DNA of 64,000 nt from Zootoca vivipara. Its lineage: Eukaryota. Location: contig NC_083277.1 in the NCBI RefSeq assembly GCF_963506605.1, positions 56,854,001-56,918,000 of the forward strand. Direction: 5' to 3'. The notes under the pieces are model-generated. The model searched no databases. It saw only the letters and a list, made by a program, of their open reading frames with translations, and was not told the DNA's origin. Below are positions 50,701-63,659 of this stretch, one piece after another; position 1 is the stretch's first letter; the number at the start of each line of letters is the position of its first letter. A program made the position numbers and the translations under genes.

Positions 50701-53700
50701 GTAGATGAAGGGAGAGATGTAGCTCTTCTCCCACTTCTGTAGCATCCCACTGCTGTCCCCACTGAAGAGCAAAACGGGCTCCTTTTTGGCTGGTGGAGAT
50801 ACATTCAGAAGGTCAAGCAGGGGCAGCAGGGGCTTTGGAAAACCAGACAACATTTTTATTGCTGGACACATAAAACTCAACCCCGGCCCTTGTCCCAGCC
50901 AGATAAGACTCTCCTAGCTTTGAACCTCACCTCACGGAGCTTGTACATCTGGGGCTGGAGCGGTTGCAGAGTTAGAGATATATATGGCTGCTTACCATAA
51001 GTTAGGCACTCTAGGGGGTGTTTGCAAGGCAGCACTGTCAGGCATCCCAACTCGCTGTAGCGCCAGACGAGTATTTGCTGCGGCTTTGCCGTGCCTGGAA
51101 GAAGGAAAAGTTCTGCGTTTCTTAAAATTACTTGGGTTATTCTAAAAAGCTCTTGCCATCCACTGAGCCTTCTAATATCTCTGAAGAAGCTGAGTGGGAA
51201 ATCGCCTTGTGTTAAATTAGAAAAGCATGCATAGATCTCACAACACCTGATTGCATGAAACTGGAATCTCTGGATATAAATCTGGGACCTGTGGTGGGAA
51301 CCAACAGGAATATAAAAAGAGCCTGCTGGATCAGGCAAAAAACTTCCCACAACAATTAACCAGATGCCCATGGGAACATATAAGAGAGAAGTCTGTCCCA
51401 AGTGCTATAACCACGCTGGGTCTGAATGCAATAAGCACATGAGCCTACCAAGGTCACCACCTGGTTCTGTGATGAAAGCCCTTTCTTTTGTACTAATTAA
51501 TCAATTTTTACTACATTTATATCATGCCTTTCCTCCAAGGAGTTCAGGGCAAAAGACATAGTTTACTCACCCCATGTTTTCCTCACAACAATCCAGTGGC
51601 ATTAAGCTAAACTGGGAGAGGGTGATTGGCCAAGGAGGCCCAGCAAGCTTTGTGGCTGAGTGGTGGAATGAACCTGGATATCTCCAATGCCAATTCAACG
51701 CTCTCACCACTGGGTGCCATACTGGTCTAGTATCTTCCCCTAAAGCTATTTTCTCCTAACTGCATGAAAGGACATGGCCTACAGATAAGAAGAGATGCTG
51801 AATCTAACATTGGCAGCTGAGAGACCAGGTGAGGCCTTGTATTGCAGATGTTGGGAGGGGGGCATCTGTACTCTACTGGAGAACTCACCTATCACATGCC
51901 TCGAGTCTGGCAGGCTGAGAAGCTGCTGAAGAGCAGGCCCATCTTTCTGTTGGCCTTGGAATGTGGATATGAACTGTGAAACCTGAAAGCAGATCAGCAC
52001 AAAGAATTCAGAACAGGCTGGCCATTAAATACCTGTTTCTCCTTATTCTTCCTATAAATGTGGAATGGTACACAGGAGCCATCTTTACTTAGGGGTCAAA
52101 GACCTATCAAAAAGAGCTGTGCTGGGGGCACTTGTTCAGTGGACTTTTGAACTTTGTTGAGCACATGACAGAACTTGGGGTCGAACTGTGAAATGCAGTT
52201 GGATCTGGTATTGAAAGCTACAAAGAAATGTAATCTTTGAGTATGTTTTTGGGGGAGTTTGCAGATCCAGGAATACAGTGTTAGAGGCACTAATGGCTTT
52301 TGAAGCATCCACCCAATGGAAATAGCAATTGAAAAACATGTTCAGGAAGAGGCCCTGAGAATGGGAGGATACAACAGCTAAGGAAATGAGAAGAGACAGG
52401 ATTTAATCTTCAGTATATCTGCCATCTGACATTTGGAAGAGGATCAGAGTAATTTGTCAGTATAAAACGGCTGTGTATAGTTTTTATGTCACCTGTATTA
52501 TGTCATTAATCAGGCAAAATGGGTCTGATCTGTCAGGGTAAGGCAGCTTGTTAAAAGAAACATGCTCCATCAAAGAGTGCTCTTTTTGACATGGGTAATT
52601 TTTCATAGGATAAAAACTAATCAATATGAGGAGCTGAGGCCAACTAAGGACAGGCAATTCTTCAAGGGAAAATCATCCCATAGAACAGCTCCCATAGGAA
52701 CAGGGGAACTTACGTATGTTGTTCCAGGTCAGTCTATTTATCTATCCAGCCCAGTATTTAATACTCTGAGTGGCAGCAGCTCCTTCGGGTCTCAGGAATT
52801 GATTGCTCCCATTATCTAGCTCATTTTAAGTGGAGATGCTAGGGACTGAACCAGGGGCCTTTTTTTGACATGCAAAGCTTACTATTGTACCCTCCCCTCA
52901 CAAGGCACTGGTCTCCAAGCATCTTTTGCTGTGAGTTGAGGATGGCACACTTGAATATGTCCCATGCAATTTTCACTCCTGCAGTCTGAAGTAGCAGCCC
53001 ATGAAAAGCCGCACCACAAAATTCTGCTTCATGTGTAACATGGGTGAGCAACAGGATCCTGGGCTTATCGGTCCCCATTTGCACAGCATGGTCAAACCCT
53101 TGGCAGCAATTGTTTACCACTAGGACTGTGGCCTTGCTGGAAGAAAACAAAAAAACTGGACAATCTAGCTTATATAGTCTTAATGCACATGCCTAATATA
53201 CTAAGACTGTGAGCAAGTGTGGGAGTTGATTGGCGCAGCCTGGCAGTGCATGTGGAGAGAGTCATCTGGCTTATCCTCTTGGCTGCAATTCACAAAGACA
53301 GAAAGGGAAAGAAAACACACCCTGGCCTTTTGTCCTCCCTATATATCCCTATGCTAGTTCAGGCGGATGCAATGGCAACCCATCACCAATAGAGGGCTCC
53401 TTATAATAACAAGTTCATTGATCTTTAGGCGAGGGGAAAAAGGAAATGCCACACTTAAGTCGCTCACTATTTCCCCAGACTGAGGCTCATAGAGGGTGGG
53501 CTGGGTTGTACCACTGGTGATCCAGACGATGCCAACAGATGCCACGTAGCAGAGTCCAGTAATGTTCCCGGTGAAGGGGCCAAGGCGCTGGATGAGCTTC
53601 CCATCCTGGGACCAGATGCCAACTGTCTGGTCAAAAGAACCTGACAGCACCCTGCAGAGGAGATGACAGACCAGAGGGAGGCTCAGGGAAGCAGGACTTT

Positions 53701-56700
53701 GGCAGCGGAGTGGAGGAGCAGGGCTGTGCTTGCATTCCCCAAGCAAAGACTTCACACCCTCTATATAAACCAAAGGCTCCCTTTCTAGTCAATCATTGAA
53801 AGCAGGATAAAATATTCCATCTCTCTCCCCCCCCCTTTTCTTTAAGCAAAGTGTTCTTATTTTACACTTCCCCAAGCGGAACACACTCAAAGCCTCTCCC
53901 TCCTGGCCAGAGGTTCGAGTAACATCCTGCGGCTTCCAGTTCCTCTTTGTGGTAAACGTCATCCTTCCAGAGCCCTCTGGCTCTAGATGTGCTACTTAGA
54001 GCACCAGCCTCTGCAACAGAAATCTATCCAGAGAAGGAGGCATCTCCTCCTGCTTCTCCTTTCCCCATCACCATGCTAACTTCTCCTGGAAGGAAGGAAG
54101 GAAGCTGCAAAGGGAGGGGGAGAGAAAGGAGGAGGGAGCAAAGCCCATATAGTATTCTTTTATTTTAAAAAATGGATAGGAAATATAACCTAGGAAACGT
54201 GAATCAGAGGGGACGGAAGCAGGAATTAAGGACTGTAAGGGAATGGAATTTCTGCAGAGTACATTATAAAAGGTGGTAGGTGTACACTCAGCGTACAGTG
54301 ATTCTCGCTTTCTATATGTGAAAGCGAATTTAGCTCATCCTTGCCCTTCAATTGTATGCTTCCATCCACACCACAGCAGATCTCTTTGGGCAGCAGGATT
54401 TGCCCTTTTGAAGTGACTAAAGAGGGAATCCTGCTTTGTCTCGTTTCCCTGTCCTTATGCCAGAATGAGGAACCGTTTTCAGCCCGAGTGACAGGCCACA
54501 TTCCCTTCCTGGGGCCTCAATGGGCAGAGTCATTGGTATGACTCCTACCTTTCCTACAGTAAAAGCCAGAGGTTTCTACACATGCCCACAGCATGCCCAC
54601 ATCCAGGCAAACAAGAGGCATTATCACAGCTCAACAGCATATTCTTGCCATGCAAAAGCACTTGAGGGGGATGCAGAGCAGGGTCAGTGAAGGGCACAGC
54701 TTGTGGATGGAGGTGGGTGGCCTGGGACAAGTCCCAGGAGTCATTCAGAGAGGCCTGGAGGTCCACCTCTGGCCCTGGTTCTGAGGTTTCCCACCCCTGT
54801 TCTACATAAGAATTGTGGCACCAGGAAGCTGCCATGCAGGTACAACCTAAGACTATCTGTGAGGGACAAGGGATACAGGGAAGTCCCTCCCATCTTAAGT
54901 TCCAGCCCATCCCCAAGCGCTGGAGAGAGTAAGGAGAGCTCTGCCTCCAGCGGAGAGTCAGGAAGTGGTGTCCGAGGCTCAGGCAAGGTTGTGGAGCCCA
55001 TGCCTCAGGTGGGACAGGAAGTTGGACGCACGGGGGGGAGGCCAATCCCCCCAACTCCCGAATTGCGACGCAAACGTAGGGGGAAGAGGTTGGGTCTGCC
55101 AAAGCTTTGGTGCTGGAAGAAAACGCGCCAATCGCCATTCGGAGGTTCTGACACCTCACCTTAAGGATGCATTTTTACTGCTCTGAACACTGTAAATAAT
55201 CAGCACTTAATAAAAGCCTTAAAAGACCATGCTGGAGTCGTTACTCTAGAGTAGCCATATCAGGCCCTCTGACAGCAACCTCCGAATCTTTTTTTGGCTA
55301 CTTTGGAGTGCAGCGATGAGCGCTCAAGAGGCTGAGCAGTGGAGGCTGGAGGCCGAAGCAGCGAAGCAGGAGCTACGGAACCTCACAGCACAGGCACAGC
55401 AGCAATTGCATGCCGCTCAGGAGGAAGCGCGAGGGGCGCAGGAGGAGCTGAACAAGCTGGTGGACCAGGTGAGGACAAAAGAGGAGACTGAGAAACAGCT
55501 AAGGGTGATGGTATTGGACCTGCAGAAAAAGTTGGAAGAGGAGAAAGCCGCTAGAGGTGGGGGGGCGCCCCAGCCGCAGCTAGTCCAAGTGAGAAGGGGA
55601 CAGAGCCTAGTCACCAAGTTTAGCGGCGACCCTAGGGAATACCTAGGATTCGAGACAGAAATAAATTATGCGCTGGAATTGCATGCAGCAGAATTCCCAG
55701 ATGACGCGCACAGAGTCTCCTTTATCATAGAGCATTTGACGGGGGCCGCCCGGGAATGGGTAAGACCGCTCATCGCGCAAAAAAATCCTTGCATGAAGAA
55801 CGCAAAATTATTTCTAGAAGCTTTAAAAATAATGTACGCTAGTGACAGTGAAATGGAGGCCACTAAACAGGAGCTTCATAACTTAACACAAGGAAAATCG
55901 ACAGTGAGGGACTACTGGGCGAGATTCACCATGCTGGTGCACAAACTGGGGTGGGATCTGCAAAGTGAGCCAGTGAAATCAGCCTTCTACCTGGGTTTGC
56001 ATGCAGATGTTAAGGATGAGCTGGCAAGAGGTCCTAGACCGCGGACTATGGATGAGTTAAGCAAAGCGGCGCTAGCGGTGGGGGTGAGACAGGAATCCAG
56101 ATGGTATGACAAACAAGCGACGCGCGCAGCAAAACCTTGGTTCCCACGCTCCCAGGACAGACCACATCACCAAACCCCACCCCAGGGACCACCCCCAGAC
56201 CCGCCCAGACCAAGCCCAGAGCCAGAACCGATGGAGATCGGTGGAGCGCGCGCGCGGGCTTTTCAAACCCCGGCGGCGCCAAGACGCAAGGAGGGAAGGG
56301 GCGGGAATTGCTTTCTCTGCAACTCCCCCCGGCATCGCGTCAGAGACTGCCCTCATCGCAGAGAGTGGCAAGGAAAGGCGGGAACGGTTGTACCTTCCCC
56401 CACTGAAGCAGCACCACAGCAGGGAAACGAGACAGCCTGGCTGCAGGAGACAAGGGGCAGCAGCCAGGCACAGTCAGCAGACAACAGCCCCAGCCCGCCC
56501 ACCCGCACAGAGAGGAGCAGAGCCAGCCCACCCCTCCCAGAGCAGGAGTGGTTCTAGAAGTCACGCTAACGCTCCCAAATGGCTATCCCCTGACTGTCCT
56601 CGCCTTAATTGACAGTGGTGCCTCAGCCAACTTCTTCTCGAGAAACTTTGCAGAAGAGCACCAGATCCAGCTTCTGCAGCTGGATTTTCCCCTGCACGTA

Positions 56701-59700
56701 GCCACCATTGACGGCAGAGAGTTGCTGGGAGGGGCCATCACTCATCAACCCCCCCCCCCATGAGAATGACGGTGGGAAGGCACTCAGAGACACTGGCTTT
56801 CAACGTCACAACCATCTCAGACCCCCCCATCGTTTTGGGAATGAGCTGGCTGGCGCGCCACGACCCCTCCATAAGTTGGCACCAGAGATGCATCACGTTT
56901 GGGTCGGACTTTTGTCTGGAACATTGCATGCAGCACCAACCAGGGGAGGGGCCTCCAATAGCCACGGTGGCCACCATGCATGTCAAAGGGGGTGAGGCGA
57001 TACCCAAGCAGTACTGGGACCTGCAGGAGGTCTTCAGCGAAGCGGAGTCCGACCACCTACCCCCACACAGGTCTTTCGACTGCCAGATCAACCTGGTACC
57101 AGGGGCAACGATACCCCCAGCCAAGCTGTACGCCATGTCAGATCAGGAACTCGAGGATTTGCGTGCGTTCATAGACAAGAACCTCAAACGGGGGTTCATC
57201 AGAGAAAGCAAGGCAGCAGGAGGCAGCCCGGTCTTCTGGGTGGACAAGAAAGACACGCAACAGCGCCGTCTTGTGGTGGATTTCAGACGGCTCAACTCAG
57301 TGACAGAGCCAGTGGCTTTCCCCATGCCCAGAGTGGACGATCTCCTGACAGCGGCACGCAGGGGCAAGATTTTCACCAAGCTAGACCTGAGGGGGGCGTA
57401 CAACTTGATCAGGATCCGGGAAGGCGATGAGTGGAAAACCACGATGTTCACGCCTCTGGGCTCTTTTGAATATCTGGTGATGCCCTTCGGGTTGCAAGGG
57501 GGCTCAGCATGCTTCCAGGCCTTCATGCACCACGTCCTGGGGTCCCTTCTCTTCAAGAACTGCCTGGTCTTCCTGGATGACATCCTTATCTATTCCGCTG
57601 ACCCAGTGCAACATGTGAAGGATGTCAGGGAGGTGTTGCAACGCCTGAAGGAGAACCACCTGTATGTGAAGCTGGAGAAGTGCAAGTTCCACCCCAGGGA
57701 AGTGGACTTCCTGGGCTACAAGCTGTCAGACAAGGGGCTGGCGATGGACAAGGACAAGGTGCAGGCCATCCTGGACTGGCACAGCCCCAGGACGCGCAAA
57801 GATGCCCAACGCCTCCTAGGATTCGCCAACTTCTACAGGAAATTCATCAAGAACTTCTCGCGGGTTACGGCTCCCATCACGGATTGCCTGAGAGGCAAGC
57901 AGAAGTTCAGGTGGACGCCAGAGGCGCAAGCAGCGTTCGAAAGCCTCAAAAGGGTGTTCGCGTCCGACCAGAACCTGTTCCACGTAGTGCAGGATGCGCC
58001 CCTACGCATTGAGACCGATGCTTCGGACCGGGCTTTGGGAGCGATCCTGTTGCAACTGGACGCCAACAGAGAGTGGAGACCTTGTGCCTTCTTCTCCAGG
58101 AAGCTGACACAGCCTGAACGCAACTACACGGTGTTTGATAGGGAACTTCTTGCGATCCACGCTGCTTTCCAGCACTGGCGACACTTCCTGGTGGGCGCCA
58201 AGCACCCCATCCAGGTGTGCACAGACCACAAGAACCTGGAGTTCTGGAGAACGGCCAGGGTGCTCAACCAGCGACAGATACGGTGGGCAGAGTTCTTCTC
58301 GAACTTCAACTTCTCCATCCACTACATCCCGGGGGAGCAGAATGTCAGGGCGGATGCCCTCTCCCGCAAACCAGAGTACATGGAGCAGGAGTTGCCACCA
58401 GCGCCCAGGCACATTTTCCCCCCATCAGCATGGTCCTGCGGAGCAGCAGTGGTGAGCGAGGCAGAACTCACCGCACTGACGGCAGCAGATGAGTTTGCCT
58501 CCCGCATCTTCAGAGAGCTGCGAGGGGGGAGGGAGCAGGCTAAAGACTTTGAGGAAAGGAGGGGTTTGCTTTTTTACAGGGGAGCCCTGTACCTGCCCAC
58601 CAAACAGCTGAGAGGTAAGGTCCTCAAGCAGATGCACGACAACCCAATGGCGGGTCATTTCGGAAGGGACAAAACCACTCACCTAGTTATGAGACACTTC
58701 TGGTGGCCAGGGGTGCGGGAGGATGTGAGGGATTATGTAAGGGGCTGTGACACCTGCCAGCGAGCAAAGGTGGTCAGAGCGCCACCAGCAGGTTTGCTGG
58801 AGCCCTTAGCCACACCGCACAGGCCGTGGGAAGTAGTGTCCATGGACTTCATCACAGACCTGCCGTCGTCCAGGGGCAAGACCGCAGTGTTGGTGGTGGT
58901 GGACCTCATGTCCAAAATGTGCCACTTTATACCGTGTGCCAGGGCGGTCTCGGCAGAAGAGACGGCCAAACTGTTTGTTGACCACGTATTCAGACTGCAT
59001 GGATTGCCTTTAAGAGTTATTTCGGATCGTGGCCGCCAATTTGTTTCCAGGTTCTGGCGGCAGCTAATGAACCTCCTGCAGGTGGAGGTCAGTTTGTCTA
59101 CGGCTCGGCACCCGCAGACCAATGGACAGGCGGAGCGGGTCAACGCCATTCTGCAGCAGTACCTGAGATGTTACGTCAGCCAGAGGCAAACGGACTGGGT
59201 GGATCGCCTGCCACTGGCAGAATTTGCCTACAACAATGCGGTGCACGTCTCCACAGGGGTGTCGCCCTTTAAGGCCAACTACGGGCGCGACCTCAGATCT
59301 TTCCCGGAGAGGGAGGGGGAGGAGGAGGAAGAGGGCCCACAGGCAGAGGATTGGGCAGAGGACCTGGAGACGGTGCACCAGCAGCTCAGAGAACACTTGG
59401 AGAGGGCCAAGGAAGCGTACAAGAAGGGGGCAGATCGCCACAGGCGACCGGGAGAGGTCATCAGGGTGGGGGACAAGGTTTGGTTATCCTCGGAAGGTCT
59501 TCCCACCAGGGGGCGATGCAAGAAGTTAGCACCCAGGAGGCTGGGCCCCTTCACGGTCACGCAACAGGTCAACCCGGTAGCCTTCAGGCTAGCACTGCCT
59601 GAGGACATGAGAGTGCACCCAGTGTTTCATAGATCACTGCTGTCGCCGTACAGAGAAAGTACTAGGTTCAGGGACAGCGATCAGCCTCCAGAGGGAGGGG

Positions 59701-62700
59701 GGGAGACGGGAAACGCCCGTCAGCTCAATGAGGCAACTGAGATTTTAGACTCAAGGAGAGGGGTGAGAGGGCTGGAGTACCTGATAGCATGGGAGGACAC
59801 TCCGCCGTCCCACAATGAGTGGATACCAGCCACGGAAGTACCTGAGGAATTTTTAGTAGAAGAGTTCCACGCCCTGTTCCCCCACAGGCCCAAGCCCTGG
59901 CACATGGAAAGGGAGGAAGAGGGGGAGGGGCAGGAGGAAGGGATCGCAGGCAGCAGCTCTCCATGGAGATGGGAAGCGGAATTTGAGGATACGGAAGAAG
60001 AGGTGTGGGTTTCACCGAGGTCGACGACGTCAGAGGCAGGAGAGGACTGGCAGAACATTTTTACTCCCACCAGCTCTGACGCCACTGACTTCTTGGGATT
60101 CCCGTCTTCTCAGGGGGAGGGGGAAAGATCGCCGGATTGGGGGAAAAATTTTACACCCACAGGCTCGGATGCCACAGACTTCTTGGGGTTTCACTCGTCC
60201 CCAGCAAGCAGAGAGCCCCTAGGGAGGGGGGGGGAGGAGCCTGGGAGGGGGGTGGATGTGAGGGACAAGGGATACAGGGAAGTCCCTCCCATCTTAAGTT
60301 CCAGCCCATCCCCAAGCGCTGGAGAGAGTAAGGAGAGCTCTGCCTCCAGCGGAGAGTCAGGAAGTGGTGTCCGAGGCTCAGGCAAGGTTGTGGAGCCCAT
60401 GCCTCAGGTGGGACAGGAAGTTGGACGCACGGGGGGGAGGCCAATCCCCCCAACTCCCGAATTGCGACGCAAACGTAGGGGGAAGAGGTTGGGTCTGCCA
60501 AAGCTTTGGTGCTGGAAGAAAACGCGCCAATCGCCATTCAGAGGTTCTGACACCTCACCTTAAGGATGCATTTTTACTGCTCTGAACACTGTAAATAATC
60601 AGCACTTAATAAAAGCCTTAAAAGACCATGCTGGAGTCGTTACTCTAGAGTAGCCATATCAGGCCCTCTGACACTATCCTTCAGCATAAAAGTCTCCCCT
60701 CAATCCACTGCTGCTAGTATCTATTTGGCTACTCTTGCCTAGTACCTTCCTGTTTGGGGGGAAGGAGAGTCAATTAGACACTGACAGGTCATGGCACGTA
60801 GCAGGAGAGCACCTCTTGACAAATGTCTTCACACACAACCCATTCTCTAGATCCCACGGCCTAGGTGGCCTGCCCTTTGCACTGAGCTCGTACCTTGTGG
60901 TTTCTTGCTGCCGTACCAGCAGCAGGTGAGTGATGGCTGCACGATGGGCACGTGGGATGCAGTGCTTGGTTGTCAGGCCCTTCTTGCCTGGAGTTTGATA
61001 GGTGTCAAAGATCAGCAGCTTCTTGTCATACCTGGGAAGGGAAGGGAACGTTGAATCTACTGAATCTGGACTCTGAGGCTGACGTGGCTTAAACCTCCCC
61101 GTGGTGGGAGAGGGAGCTTTGGTTTCAAAGCAGAGCCGCAGATCCCCTCCTTGGGAAAATGTGTATGACTCACTGCTTTGTCCTTCGCAGTCATCCAGAA
61201 ACCACATTATTACTGTCACCTTGTTGGAGACCATCTCACTGCCTTCCACCAGGGCCTGTTTGATAAGGTTCTGCATGACACGATGAGTAGCATATGATAG
61301 AAGCATTTCACAAAGCAGTAAGTATCACAGAGGGTCTGTACTTTGAACCCATCTGCAGACGGAGCCCATTCTTCATTCCCGCAACTCCCAACTTACCCTG
61401 CTGTGTATATTTGGTTGTCCAGGCAGGCGATGCAGGACACAATGTCTGTGTGTGTGTGCTCGGAAAAGCCCCGGGCCATGTGGACCACGTGGCCAGATTC
61501 TCTCCTTTCATCCAAAGGGAAAGCCATCAGGCGTCCCTTGCTGCCACAAAGCAGAAGATGCCGAGCCAGGCTGATGGACAAGGTGAAGATAGGGTACCCT
61601 AGCTGGAGGGGGGGAAAGCGGGGACTGGCTTGAGTGCAGGAAGACTGTGCACAAAATAATAGGCTCTAAGGCAGGCATCCCCAAACTTCGGCCCTCCAGA
61701 TGTTTTGGACTACAATTCCTATCTTCCCTGACCACTGGTCCTGTTAGCTAGGGATCATGGGAGTTGTAGGCCAAAACATCTGGAGGGCCTGCTCTAGGGA
61801 CTCAGGGAGGCAATACTACCTAGTTCTCGCCCTGCAAGACTTTCTGGAAGGGCCTGGTCTTACATAGATTTTATTGGAGTTAGACCATCAGGGCACTCGA
61901 GGCCCAGAAGACAGCAAAATCTAATCCTGATTTCAGTGCTTTTTAAAAAGAAATAAAAGGTGCCGGTACTCACCATGAAGTTGTTACAGTGTCACACTTT
62001 TAACATTTGGTGTTTGGCGGCGGGGGTGGTGGTGGTGGTGGTGTTGGTGTTGGCACAGAAAACCCTTGATTACCCCCCAGAATAAAGCATTGCCTATTTT
62101 TCAGAATGAACATTACACTTCAAGGGCTCAAATATTTTATTTCTTACATTTCTCTACGGCCCTTCATCCGAAGATGGTTTACAAAATAAAAACACAAAAA
62201 TGTACAGCATACTAACAAAAACAATACCCCACCCCCAGTTGAGAAGGCCATAGATTGTTTAGTTAGTCAAATAATATTTAGGAAGCTGTCTTCTACCTCA
62301 GGGACAGGAACCTGCAGCTCTCCATATGCTGTTGGACTACAACCCCCATTATCCCTGAGGCTTGGCTGGGGCTGATGGGAGTTCTGGAAGGCCACAGCTT
62401 AGGCACTCCGGGTCTGCATTGACTGGGAGCAGCTTTCCAGGGTGTCAGACAGATGTCCTTTCCAGCGCTACCTGGAGAAGCCGGGAATTGAGCCTGGGGC
62501 TTCCTGTATGCAATGCATGTGCTCTGCTCCTGAGTTGCAGCCTTTCGTGGGAATACTGGTTGGGGCAAGTTCTCCTTTATCCTCAGAAGCCTCAGTTAGT
62601 AGGTGCAGAAAGTGAGATCTCTACCTAAACTGCAGATGTAGCATCCCAGGAATCCCCAGAATTCCTTGAGCAATAAGAGCTTAGCACAATCACTCTCTGA

Positions 62701-63659
62701 CAGGGTTTCCCAGACTTGGGTCTCCAGCTGTTTTTGGACTACAATTCCCATCATCCCTAGCTAGCAGGACCAGTGTTCAGGGGTGATGGGAATTGCAGTC
62801 CAAAAACAGCTGGAGACTCAAGTTTGGTAAACCCTGTTCTATGATATCTGGTCAATTCCATGCAATGACTTACAAACTTCAGAAAAGCAACTGTGTCATT
62901 ACTCTTGGCCTGCCCTGACCCCAGGATGTAATACGGTGTGGTTCTTACCAGGATGCGGTCAAGCACAGTGCCACCTACAGCCCACACGAGCACGGAGCCA
63001 TCATTGGAAGAAGAGAAGAGGAGTCGTGCCTGCGCCCAGGACTGGAAGTGGGTGACTCGGCCAGCATGCTCCTTGGCGCAGAGGGACATGTGCCCATTCT
63101 CCGCGTCCCACCATTTGATCACTCCATCTATCAGGGCAAGAAGGGTAACAATATATGGCTTGTTTAGCTAGGGGCTCATTTTGGGAGGAACGTCTCCAGC
63201 TCATTTGGAGAGAGATGCCTTAAGGAAAAACCTGATGGGTTTTGAATGAGGGCACTGTGCTAGCATGGCATTCCCTGATGAGAACTCAAGCATAAATTCA
63301 GAGGTCATATAGGGACATGGGGACATGTGCTGAAAGCATGTAGATGAGACAGAAAGCAGACTCTTGGTGCAGGTGAAAGATATACTGCGTTTTGGGCTGT
63401 ACTCTTGTTGTGGGGATGGAAATGGGGGTCTATTATGTGATGTAACTGTCCAAGATTTGGGCATGTTATACGAAGCAGGCATGGAAGTTGGGTAGAATTT
63501 AATGCTGTAATGCTCACAAAGAACTGGGAAAATGTACCTCTCTAGCTAGGACTCACCTTCAAAGCCGGTGAGGCACTCCCGTCGGGCTGAATGGTAGCCA
63601 AGAGCTGTTATGGGACGGCGATGACGTTCTTTCACCTTCAGATGCTCTTGCATAGCCAT
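44760..63659 (-). CDS. Uncharacterised WD40-repeat protein (~749 aa, probable double beta-propeller)
   Basis: Phase-compatible exons 63659-63557, 63127-62949, 61602-61397, 61031-60894, 53651-53468, 51982-51889, 51094-50996, 50789-50699, 49926-49720, 49390-49282, 47905-47669 (internal structure uncertain), 47416-47292, 47050-46867, 46642-46530, 46432-46339, 44846-44760 (2250 nt). Many WD signatures: GFEDGVIKWWD, SSSNDGSVLVW, SGSFDQTVGIW, LCGH...LSGGWDGKLCLWD, LCGH...VSGAEDGSIRLW, YTGH...VSVSLDGTVCMW. An acceptor precedes the ATG, so upstream exons may lie outside the window. Confidence 0.85.
45372..45507. mobile_element. Palindromic hAT MITE, young
   Basis: CAGGCATCCCCAAACT...AGTTTGGGGATGCCTG TIRs; perfect 8-bp TSD GCTTAGGC. 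Confidence 0.9.
54858..55274 (+). repeat. 5' LTR
   Basis: TGTGAGGG...CCCTCTGACA; AATAAA at 55209-55214; identical to the 3' LTR except G55141 vs A60540. Confidence 0.97.
55277..55287 (+). promoter_or_regulatory. Self-priming primer-binding site
   Basis: AACCTCCGAAT, 2 nt after the 5' LTR, is the exact reverse complement of ATTCGGAGGTT at 55137-55147; there is no TGG tRNA-type PBS. Confidence 0.8.
55316..56557 (+). CDS. gag: Retrotransposon Gag (413 aa)
   Basis: N-terminal coiled coil, capsid-like region (KFSGDP...FIIEHLTGAAREW...LTQGKSTVRDYWARF), EPMEIG motif, zinc knuckle CFLCNSPRHRVRDC (CX2CX4HX4C). Confidence 0.93.
   Translation: MSAQEAEQWRLEAEAAKQELRNLTAQAQQQLHAAQEEARGAQEELNKLVDQVRTKEETEKQLRVMVLDLQKKLEEEKAARGGGAPQPQLVQVRRGQSLVTKFSGDPREYLGFETEINYALELHAAEFPDDAHRVSFIIEHLTGAAREWVRPLIAQKNPCMKNAKLFLEALKIMYASDSEMEATKQELHNLTQGKSTVRDYWARFTMLVHKLGWDLQSEPVKSAFYLGLHADVKDELARGPRPRTMDELSKAALAVGVRQESRWYDKQATRAAKPWFPRSQDRPHHQTPPQGPPPDPPRPSPEPEPMEIGGARARAFQTPAAPRRKEGRGGNCFLCNSPRHRVRDCPHRREWQGKAGTVVPSPTEAAPQQGNETAWLQETRGSSQAQSADNSPSPPTRTERSRASPPLPEQEWF
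56422..56491 (+). promoter_or_regulatory. Programmed -1 ribosomal frameshift signal
   Basis: G_GGA_AAC in the gag frame (56422-56428), 6-nt spacer, 10-bp stem GCCTGGCTGC/GCAGCCAGGC; the -1 frame stays open into the protease. Confidence 0.85.
56422..56763 (+). CDS. pol: Pol N-terminal part: aspartic protease (-1 frame), cut off at a C11 run
   Basis: VLALIDSGASANF active-site motif; the frame ends at TGA 56761-56763, just after the homopolymer at 56749-56759. Confidence 0.85.
   Translation, partial: GKRDSLAAGDKGQQPGTVSRQQPQPAHPHREEQSQPTPPRAGVVLEVTLTLPNGYPLTVLALIDSGASANFFSRNFAEEHQIQLLQLDFPLHVATIDGRELLGGAITHQPPPP
56760..60563 (+). CDS. pol: Pol: end of protease, reverse transcriptase, RNase H, integrase, chromodomain and long C-terminal tail (1267 aa open frame)
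   Basis: RT: KLDLRGAYNLIRI, MPFGL, FLDD. RNase H: ETDAS, RELLAI, TDHKNL, ADALSR. Integrase: HHCC, SMDFI / SDRG / QAERVN, GPF. Chromodomain: ILDSR...EYLIAW. Confidence 0.96.
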   Translation: MRMTVGRHSETLAFNVTTISDPPIVLGMSWLARHDPSISWHQRCITFGSDFCLEHCMQHQPGEGPPIATVATMHVKGGEAIPKQYWDLQEVFSEAESDHLPPHRSFDCQINLVPGATIPPAKLYAMSDQELEDLRAFIDKNLKRGFIRESKAAGGSPVFWVDKKDTQQRRLVVDFRRLNSVTEPVAFPMPRVDDLLTAARRGKIFTKLDLRGAYNLIRIREGDEWKTTMFTPLGSFEYLVMPFGLQGGSACFQAFMHHVLGSLLFKNCLVFLDDILIYSADPVQHVKDVREVLQRLKENHLYVKLEKCKFHPREVDFLGYKLSDKGLAMDKDKVQAILDWHSPRTRKDAQRLLGFANFYRKFIKNFSRVTAPITDCLRGKQKFRWTPEAQAAFESLKRVFASDQNLFHVVQDAPLRIETDASDRALGAILLQLDANREWRPCAFFSRKLTQPERNYTVFDRELLAIHAAFQHWRHFLVGAKHPIQVCTDHKNLEFWRTARVLNQRQIRWAEFFSNFNFSIHYIPGEQNVRADALSRKPEYMEQELPPAPRHIFPPSAWSCGAAVVSEAELTALTAADEFASRIFRELRGGREQAKDFEERRGLLFYRGALYLPTKQLRGKVLKQMHDNPMAGHFGRDKTTHLVMRHFWWPGVREDVRDYVRGCDTCQRAKVVRAPPAGLLEPLATPHRPWEVVSMDFITDLPSSRGKTAVLVVVDLMSKMCHFIPCARAVSAEETAKLFVDHVFRLHGLPLRVISDRGRQFVSRFWRQLMNLLQVEVSLSTARHPQTNGQAERVNAILQQYLRCYVSQRQTDWVDRLPLAEFAYNNAVHVSTGVSPFKANYGRDLRSFPEREGEEEEEGPQAEDWAEDLETVHQQLREHLERAKEAYKKGADRHRRPGEVIRVGDKVWLSSEGLPTRGRCKKLAPRRLGPFTVTQQVNPVAFRLALPEDMRVHPVFHRSLLSPYRESTRFRDSDQPPEGGGETGNARQLNEATEILDSRRGVRGLEYLIAWEDTPPSHNEWIPATEVPEEFLVEEFHALFPHRPKPWHMEREEEGEGQEEGIAGSSSPWRWEAEFEDTEEEVWVSPRSTTSEAGEDWQNIFTPTSSDATDFLGFPSSQGEGERSPDWGKNFTPTGSDATDFLGFHSSPASREPLGRGGEEPGRGVDVRDKGYREVPPILSSSPSPSAGESKESSASSGESGSGVRGSGKVVEPMPQVGQEVGRTGGRPIPPTPELRRKRRGKRLGLPKLWCWKKTRQSPFRGSDTSP
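60257..60673 (+). repeat. 3' LTR
   Basis: 417-bp copy of the 5' LTR; AATAAA at 60608-60613; followed by TSD CTATC. Confidence 0.97.
61672..61791. mobile_element. hAT MITE with a deletion in the right TIR
   Basis: Near-identical to the 45372 copy; flanks CTCTAAGG/CTCTAGGG. Confidence 0.8.
62701..62836. mobile_element. Palindromic hAT MITE
   Basis: CAGGGTTTCCCAGACTTGGG...CAAGTTTGGTAAACCCTG; same subfamily as 6021-6157. Confidence 0.8.

Follow-up and report, generated by a model that had tools for sequence, protein, structure and literature searches.

A young Ty3/gypsy chromovirus in Zootoca vivipara that likely self-primes through a covarying 11-nucleotide primer and primer-binding site

The window (the whole 64,000-nucleotide stretch of Zootoca vivipara DNA analysed here) contains an LTR element of 5.8 kb, located at 54858-60673 and flanked at both ends by the 5-bp target duplication CTATC. 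Both LTRs are 417 bp in length with TG...CA ends, and the sole difference between them is G55141 versus A60540, position +5 of an 11-mer that lies at the centre of what follows. Working from left to right, we see the following features:

54853..54857, + strand: left target-site duplication (CTATC)
54858..55274, + strand: 5' LTR, 417 bp, TG...CA
55053..55068, + strand: conserved U3 motif, a 13/16 inverted repeat with 55132-55147
55137..55147, + strand: predicted self-primer, R nucleotides 1-11, in a GCCA+1TT initiator-like context (from complementarity and covariation, the start being placed by analogy)
55209..55214, + strand: AATAAA poly(A) signal, found in a similar place in most related elements
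55244..55256, + strand: U5 strand of the second (U5-leader) helix
55275..55276, + strand: GC spacer between the end of the 5' LTR and the PBS (primer-binding site)
55277..55287, + strand: PBS, the complement of 55137-55147
55296..55308, + strand: leader strand of the U5-leader helix
55316..56557, + strand: gag open reading frame (Retrotrans_gag, Ty3_capsid)
56554..60563, + strand: pol region, encoding protease, reverse transcriptase (RT), RNase H, integrase, a Tf2-1-like SH3 domain and a chromodomain
60243..60256, + strand: polypurine tract
60257..60673, + strand: 3' LTR
60536..60546, + strand: 3' copy of the primer, with a CpG transition at 60540
60674..60678, + strand: right target-site duplication (CTATC)

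The pol frame of this copy is broken at a C homopolymer (~56750-56760), reflecting either a real lesion or an assembly error. Further along, the frame enters the 3' LTR for about 100 codons (60257-60563) and crosses the 3' primer copy before reaching its stop, so that the letters of the primer may also carry a coding constraint. The acidic tail behind the chromodomain contains two 66-nt copies of one sequence (60044-60199), 90 nt apart and 76% alike. With respect to its surroundings, the element appears to occupy, in antisense orientation, an intron of a minus-strand gene with WD40 repeats (~52800-63200), one flanking frame giving WD40-type matches that score below curated cut-offs. In a comparison that covered the right flank (60673-60900), a single contig from run X7 matches this flank and then runs on for 297 nt that do not resemble the LTR, as would fit a second individual in which the site is empty. 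Three short inverted-repeat elements (61690-61789, 62319-62383 and 62700-62837) lie downstream, which we take to resemble squamate SINE/MITE fragments.

Pfam recognises the encoded domains in gypsy order: Retrotrans_gag, Ty3_capsid, protease, RT, RNase H, integrase zinc finger and core, SH3_Tf2-1 (66.7 bits) and a chromodomain (26.4 bits; cut-off 25.1), with the protease at or just below its cut-off. The set by which a Ty3/gypsy chromovirus is recognised—TG...CA LTRs, target duplication, polypurine tract, the order gag-PR-RT-RH-IN and a C-terminal chromodomain—is thus present in full. At 46-52% identity, the best RT/RNase H relatives include proteins of amphibians, fish and fungi, hosts that the reported range of the Tf1/sushi group also spans (bioRxiv 10.1101/2022.12.06.519325); a search of solved structures matched Ty3 and retroviral RTs only. 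Judged from these sequences, we are dealing with a Ty3/gypsy chromovirus, probably one of Tf1/sushi type. Across the 1.44 Gb genome, a pattern built on the surround of the primer finds 570 LTRs and one built on the surround of the PBS finds 376 sites. Among 110 two-LTR copies that were not picked for primer or PBS variants, 43 have no LTR-LTR substitution at all, and the family is therefore young.

Reverse-complementing the 11-mer ATTCGGAGGTT (55137-55147) gives exactly AACCTCCGAAT (55277-55287), the PBS, which starts two nucleotides (GC) past the end of the 5' LTR; an 11/11 match at +3 where self-priming elements are sought by at least 10 nt of complementarity between the PBS and the element's own LTR, 0-5 nt after the LTR. 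The spacer is GC in 125/125 two-LTR copies, many of which were picked by patterns fixing those letters, and is either GC or GT in distant families. An earlier note on this DNA had described the perfect complementarity, an AATAAA some 70 nt beyond the start of the 11-mer, a single LTR difference falling inside it and the lack of a TGG-type PBS, and on rechecking each of these holds: the pairing is exact, AATAAA begins at 55209 (72 nt past 55137), G55141/A60540 is the only difference in 417 bp and TGG does not occur within 5 nt of the LTR end. In a simulation of 200,000 LTRs, a perfect 11-nt complement to a site located 0-5 nt past the LTR turned up by chance 105 times (~5e-4). For the 11-bp duplex, the predicted energy comes to -16.3 kcal/mol when the 5' LTR supplies the primer and to -10.1 kcal/mol when the 3' LTR does.

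Pairing between primer and PBS is maintained across related families. A PBS pattern that excludes the main types finds 36 sites in the genome, 30 of which were examined; 17 proved to be elements and 13 chance matches. Fourteen of these elements carry a 10-11/11 complement to their PBS at 138-149 nt before the LTR end (their primers include ATTCCAGGGTT, ATTGCGAGGTT and ATTGCCGGGTT), the other three comprising one with 9/11, one with a displaced 9/11 and one with none; none of the 13 chance matches has a complement at that position, and their scores of 7-8 fall in scattered places. When 17 leaders are aligned, 96.8% of primer/PBS cells pair and five of the 11 pairs change on both sides, the covariation score being reached in 0 of 500 shuffles (strong evidence, though the rows are related and this is not to be read as a p-value) and slid registers pairing at 29-48%. 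The close-family pattern fixed the first and last three letters of the PBS, making the invariance of those pairs uninformative. The duplex is 11 bp in 17/17 of the aligned relatives, with no extra base possible at either side. Further afield, of 20 loci fetched by search with a fish RT, 10, at 53-61% RT identity, have a different 10-12 nt self-complement at the same position; in the remaining ten either a pair of LTRs is missing or the LTR end is poorly defined. Taken over the genome, the PBS site takes at least nine different sequences, each of which matches its own LTR. Loci L153-L165 (e.g. G000:C3:99277500-99286800) make up a second young group of self-complementary elements, with 59-61% RT identity; the identity between their LTRs reaches 100%, and their primer, of 11-12 nt, is a different one.

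Within the family itself two primer types coexist: type 1, that of the window copy, and type 2, with primer ATTCGGGAGTT and PBS AACTCCCGAAT. We fetched 140 loci from the first 100 matches listed for each primer or PBS pattern search, together with a search for the +5 variant, and left out the 16 that do not have two full LTRs; the 124 kept make up, with the window element, a set of 125 copies. Their primer letters at +7/+8 and the facing PBS letters are AG/CT in 75 copies, GA/TC in 48, GG/CC in one and discordant in one. The covariation between primer and PBS that the earlier note had proposed to look for is thus borne out, with 124/125 copies concordant at +7/+8 and the sister families covarying also; this agreement was not forced by our sampling, since in the search patterns one of the two, primer or PBS core, was free to vary.

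A tree built in quick mode from LTR and leader, with the primer and PBS removed and rooted on sister families (119 rows; 11 short copies left out and five outgroup rows added), places type 1 as ancestral and type 2 nested within young type 1. The single GG/CC copy, L113 (G000:C1:131903200-131909700), is sister to one type-2 clade (SH-aLRT 99), a second type-2 clade being unplaced. From its sequence L113 looks like an apparent intermediate between the type-1 and type-2 primers. It is a chimera: toward the 3' end its identity to the window element drops from ~97% to ~77%, its 3' LTR belongs to a sister family and its two target duplications do not agree. Only the 5' half is therefore informative. 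The discordant copy, L218 (G000:C10:67686140-67692080), has a type-2 primer over a type-1 PBS; here, a short type-2 patch (equivalent to 55107-55144) is confined to the 5' LTR, the 3' LTR is type 1 and the target duplication is intact, a likely case of gene conversion by LTR-LTR exchange. Primer changes inherited by more than one copy number two, both compensated, against 1.7 expected, and within the family selection against uncompensated primer changes is not significant on this count alone. One single copy, L100 (G000:C2:121855000-121861500), has a change at primer +4 in both LTRs with its PBS unchanged, which fits the logic of an inherited mismatch and fits an RT error too; the same primer change is present in L116 (G000:C1:19429852-19432870), a sister-family element, where it is matched in the PBS. 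As a separate observation, two of the 125 copies (L036 and L087) look like tandem elements with a common LTR, an arrangement that has been linked to integrase-independent insertion of Tf1 (PMC11042837).

A second helix can be drawn beside the first. U5 (55244-55256) pairs with the leader beyond the PBS (55296-55308) over 13 bp, the extended duplex having a predicted stability of -33.6 kcal/mol (z ~ -4); RNAalifold predicts this helix from the 17 rows, with 97.3% of cells paired and two double-changed pairs, and it is weak in the four distant rows tested. As the U5-leader helix crosses the primer helix, the two would form a potential pseudoknot, part of the ‘pretzel’ of Tf1, and it is owing to this crossing that the primer helix is not returned by RNAalifold. 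For the third duplex of Tf1, on the upstream side of the PBS and of U5-IR type, we find a candidate of just 3-4 bp, broken in 22 of 48 type-2 copies, which lacks conservation in the alignment and which RNAalifold does not predict from the 17 leaders; this third duplex is weak or absent.

What the sequence itself displays, then, is primer/PBS complementarity, compensatory changes, a potential U5-leader helix and proteins of Tf1/sushi type. We consider it highly probable that this young chromodomain Ty3/gypsy element, whose PBS both pairs perfectly and covaries with an 11-mer inside the element's LTR, self-primes in the manner of Tf1, and that its lone LTR mismatch is a CpG deamination that followed insertion. 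By analogy with Tf1, transcription would start at A55137, the 5' end of the RNA would anneal to the PBS, the element's RNase H (the domain is present) would cut between nucleotides 11 and 12, and the released 11-mer would prime minus-strand synthesis. The self-priming put forward in the earlier note accordingly gains support from covariation within the family and across sister families, with start and cut carried over from Tf1.

A different reading would take the pairing to be a structural or regulatory helix of the leader, with a role in packaging, dimerisation or translation, and would have a host tRNA, a tRNA fragment or some other small RNA act as primer. Covariation does demonstrate pairing rather than priming, and neither a start site nor a primer was observed in the RNA-seq data: three runs from the same species (~6% of each run being read) gave 17-283 reads over the 5' end, mostly multi-locus LTR reads, whose ends form no cluster at 55137 or 55148, the nearest being five molecules at 55155, in a library type that cannot map capped ends. 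The comparison with tRNAs covers 30 host genes of 10 types from 20 regions, an incomplete set drawn from 63 scored candidates; within it, the best match of the PBS to a tRNA 3' end is 8/18 and has no initial run, the best internal match is 8/11, and the site itself does not begin with TGG. Against a host primer stands the variety of the PBS: it varies with each family's own LTR and cannot be following one fixed host RNA, and the 11 bp of the duplex in all 17 close relatives, extendable at neither side, are as in Tf1. We therefore think a purely structural helix with a host-derived primer very unlikely, and continue with self-priming as the preferred reading.

The earlier note had attached special weight to the position of the LTR mismatch, and here our data lead elsewhere. 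G55141 is the G of a CpG and A60540 a CpG>CpA transition. The 110 unpicked copies show 147 substitutions between their LTRs, and 39 of these hit the 28 CpG positions, which amounts to a 5-fold rate (p 8e-14); 31 of these 39 are of deamination type, split 15 versus 16 between the two LTRs, and the primer holds three of the 147 mismatches where 3.9 are expected. The +5 variant with the same flanks occurs in five LTRs genome-wide (four 3' LTRs and one 5' LTR), in each case in one LTR of its copy only, and in both LTRs of none of the 125 copies. Nor did we find a compensated lineage for it among copies with a PBS changed at the partner base; of eight such copies seven were examined, six keeping G in the primer and one having no primer. 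We conclude that the lone mismatch is likely to be ordinary decay after insertion, and does not carry special meaning. Under self-priming, R positions 1-11 of both daughter LTRs would come from the 3' LTR of the parent, and A60540 would pass to daughters as a weakened duplex; an impairment of such daughters is plausible, given a duplex 6 kcal/mol weaker and the lack of the variant in both LTRs of any of the 125 copies.

Two other accounts of this position deserve weighing. One makes the mismatch mechanistic, with reverse transcription or selection leaving the 3' primer copy different as a built-in limit on daughters; it can draw on the prior of ~3.6% for a lone mismatch to fall in the primer and on the bias of the +5 variant to 3' LTRs (four of five). 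It runs counter to the deamination-type change, the even split of CpG changes between LTRs and the absence of any enrichment in the primer, as well as to the identical, perfectly matched primers found in both LTRs of 108/125 copies; reverse transcription, moreover, normally yields two identical LTRs. We give this account hardly any credence. The other holds A60540 to be an error of sequencing or assembly, the LTRs being in truth identical. All reads and contigs over 60540 in four other runs do show G, although they derive from hundreds of copies and from other individuals, and against an error count the independent finding of the same transition in four other LTRs and the standing of CpG transitions as the commonest LTR-LTR difference; an error is, in our estimation, improbable. 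Decay by CpG transition thus remains our favoured explanation.

Upstream of the primer lies a further element of complementarity. The type-2 primer is perfectly complementary to the first 11 nt of the U3 motif (55053-55068). Identity between PBS and motif is 7-8/11 in sister and older copies and climbs through 9/11 in the window copy and 10/11 in L113 to 11/11 in type 2. Where families differ in their primers the motif retains a core of its own and does not track the primer, for which reason it is probably a promoter element, and its convergence with the primer may be due to chance. That the motif instead acts together with the primer, either by pairing with the 3' R copy or as template-switch donor behind the change from type 1 to type 2, is suggested by the increase in primer-motif complementarity at each step of the switch (a rough post-hoc chance of 1-4%, by our own estimate). 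The constancy of the motif core where primers differ speaks against such a role, as do the stepwise look of the switch, of which L113 is the apparent intermediate and which is unlike one conversion event, and the flanking type-2 marker that L218 also bears, indicative of LTR-LTR exchange; we hold a joint action of motif and primer to be unlikely, and a one-step template switch from U3 in particular is weakened by L113 and L218 alike.

A bolder proposal is a stepwise switch of the self-primer (type 1 to intermediate to type 2), in which the PBS is rewritten by copying of the retained RNA primer and the U3 repeat steers the direction. In such a coupled switch the retained RNA primer would be copied into the PBS during plus-strand synthesis, and an inherited primer change would thereby rewrite its own site. 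About half of Tf1 cDNA is reported to keep the full PBS copied into single-stranded DNA (PMC11042837), and by analogy PBS-retaining cDNA of this kind offers a route for writing an inherited primer change into the PBS. Ordinary stepwise change via G-U pairs also explains the primer series, and we put the coupled switch forward as a speculative reading with a low chance of being right. Were it true, self-priming elements could drift into private primer/PBS pairs that separate subfamilies. Two related ideas were dropped. Errors piling up at the last PBS base, as a mark of the primer 5' end, are too few among ~370 sites (position 11 is changed in two copies, and in a third with an added change; position 12 in two; position 10 in none). 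The other idea took the C behind the PBS for a copy of the cap; that letter had been set by our search patterns, and in distant families it is A or C.

The mechanism to which these data are compared is that described for Tf1, where the 5' end of the transcript anneals to the PBS, RNase H cuts between nucleotides 11 and 12, and the 11-mer primes (PMC7175516). As far as the cited sources report, self-priming has been demonstrated for fission-yeast Tf1 and is otherwise predicted, vertebrate Tf1/sushi elements included; it is described as a shared trait of the Tf1/sushi group, whose members range from fungal to vertebrate elements (PMC4600332, PMC6317226, bioRxiv 10.1101/2022.12.06.519325), the last of these extending the ‘pretzel’ fold to the group and its vertebrate members, with general context in PMC3601003, PMC5371799 and PMC2864245. 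Among the papers listed by our literature searches, none describes compensated primers that form a series with an intermediate inside one genome, or primer/PBS covariation within a family of reptile elements; supplements to the preprint may show more primer alignments.

Like Tf1 and Tf2 of Schizosaccharomyces pombe and Tj1 of S. japonicus, the window element has an 11-nt PBS just past the 5' LTR that complements a segment of the LTR, no apparent tRNA site in the comparison with 30 host tRNA genes, a PBS-adjacent helix formed with LTR sequence downstream of the primer, and an integrase bearing a chromodomain and a Tf2-type SH3 domain. Unlike them, it resides in a vertebrate host, in hundreds of copies and with two primer types; compared with Tf1, two of the three ‘pretzel’ duplexes are clear, and the start site and cleavage that have been shown for Tf1 are here inferred. 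With the vertebrate Tf1/sushi elements (sushi-ichi and Amn-ichi/-ni/-san; the V-clade of GyDB; Butler et al. 2001 as cited) it shares, so far as those descriptions go, its probable group, the order of domains and a predicted self-priming ‘pretzel’. The plant Tcn1 (gypsy) and TAR (copia) lineages are predicted to self-prime on the basis of a complement to the LTR, 10 nt or longer, that starts 0-5 nt past the 5' LTR (PMC6317226), a property that the window element also has, although the hosts differ and TAR belongs to another superfamily. The element therefore adds a member to an already predicted self-priming group, and the known picture is unchanged. Its young family, in which several hundred copies are nearly identical, two primer types are each compensated and one copy appears intermediate, lends strong support by comparison from a vertebrate. 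It also contributes a clear natural record of primer switching and exact predictions from the Tf1 model: a capped end at +1 and a cut after +11.
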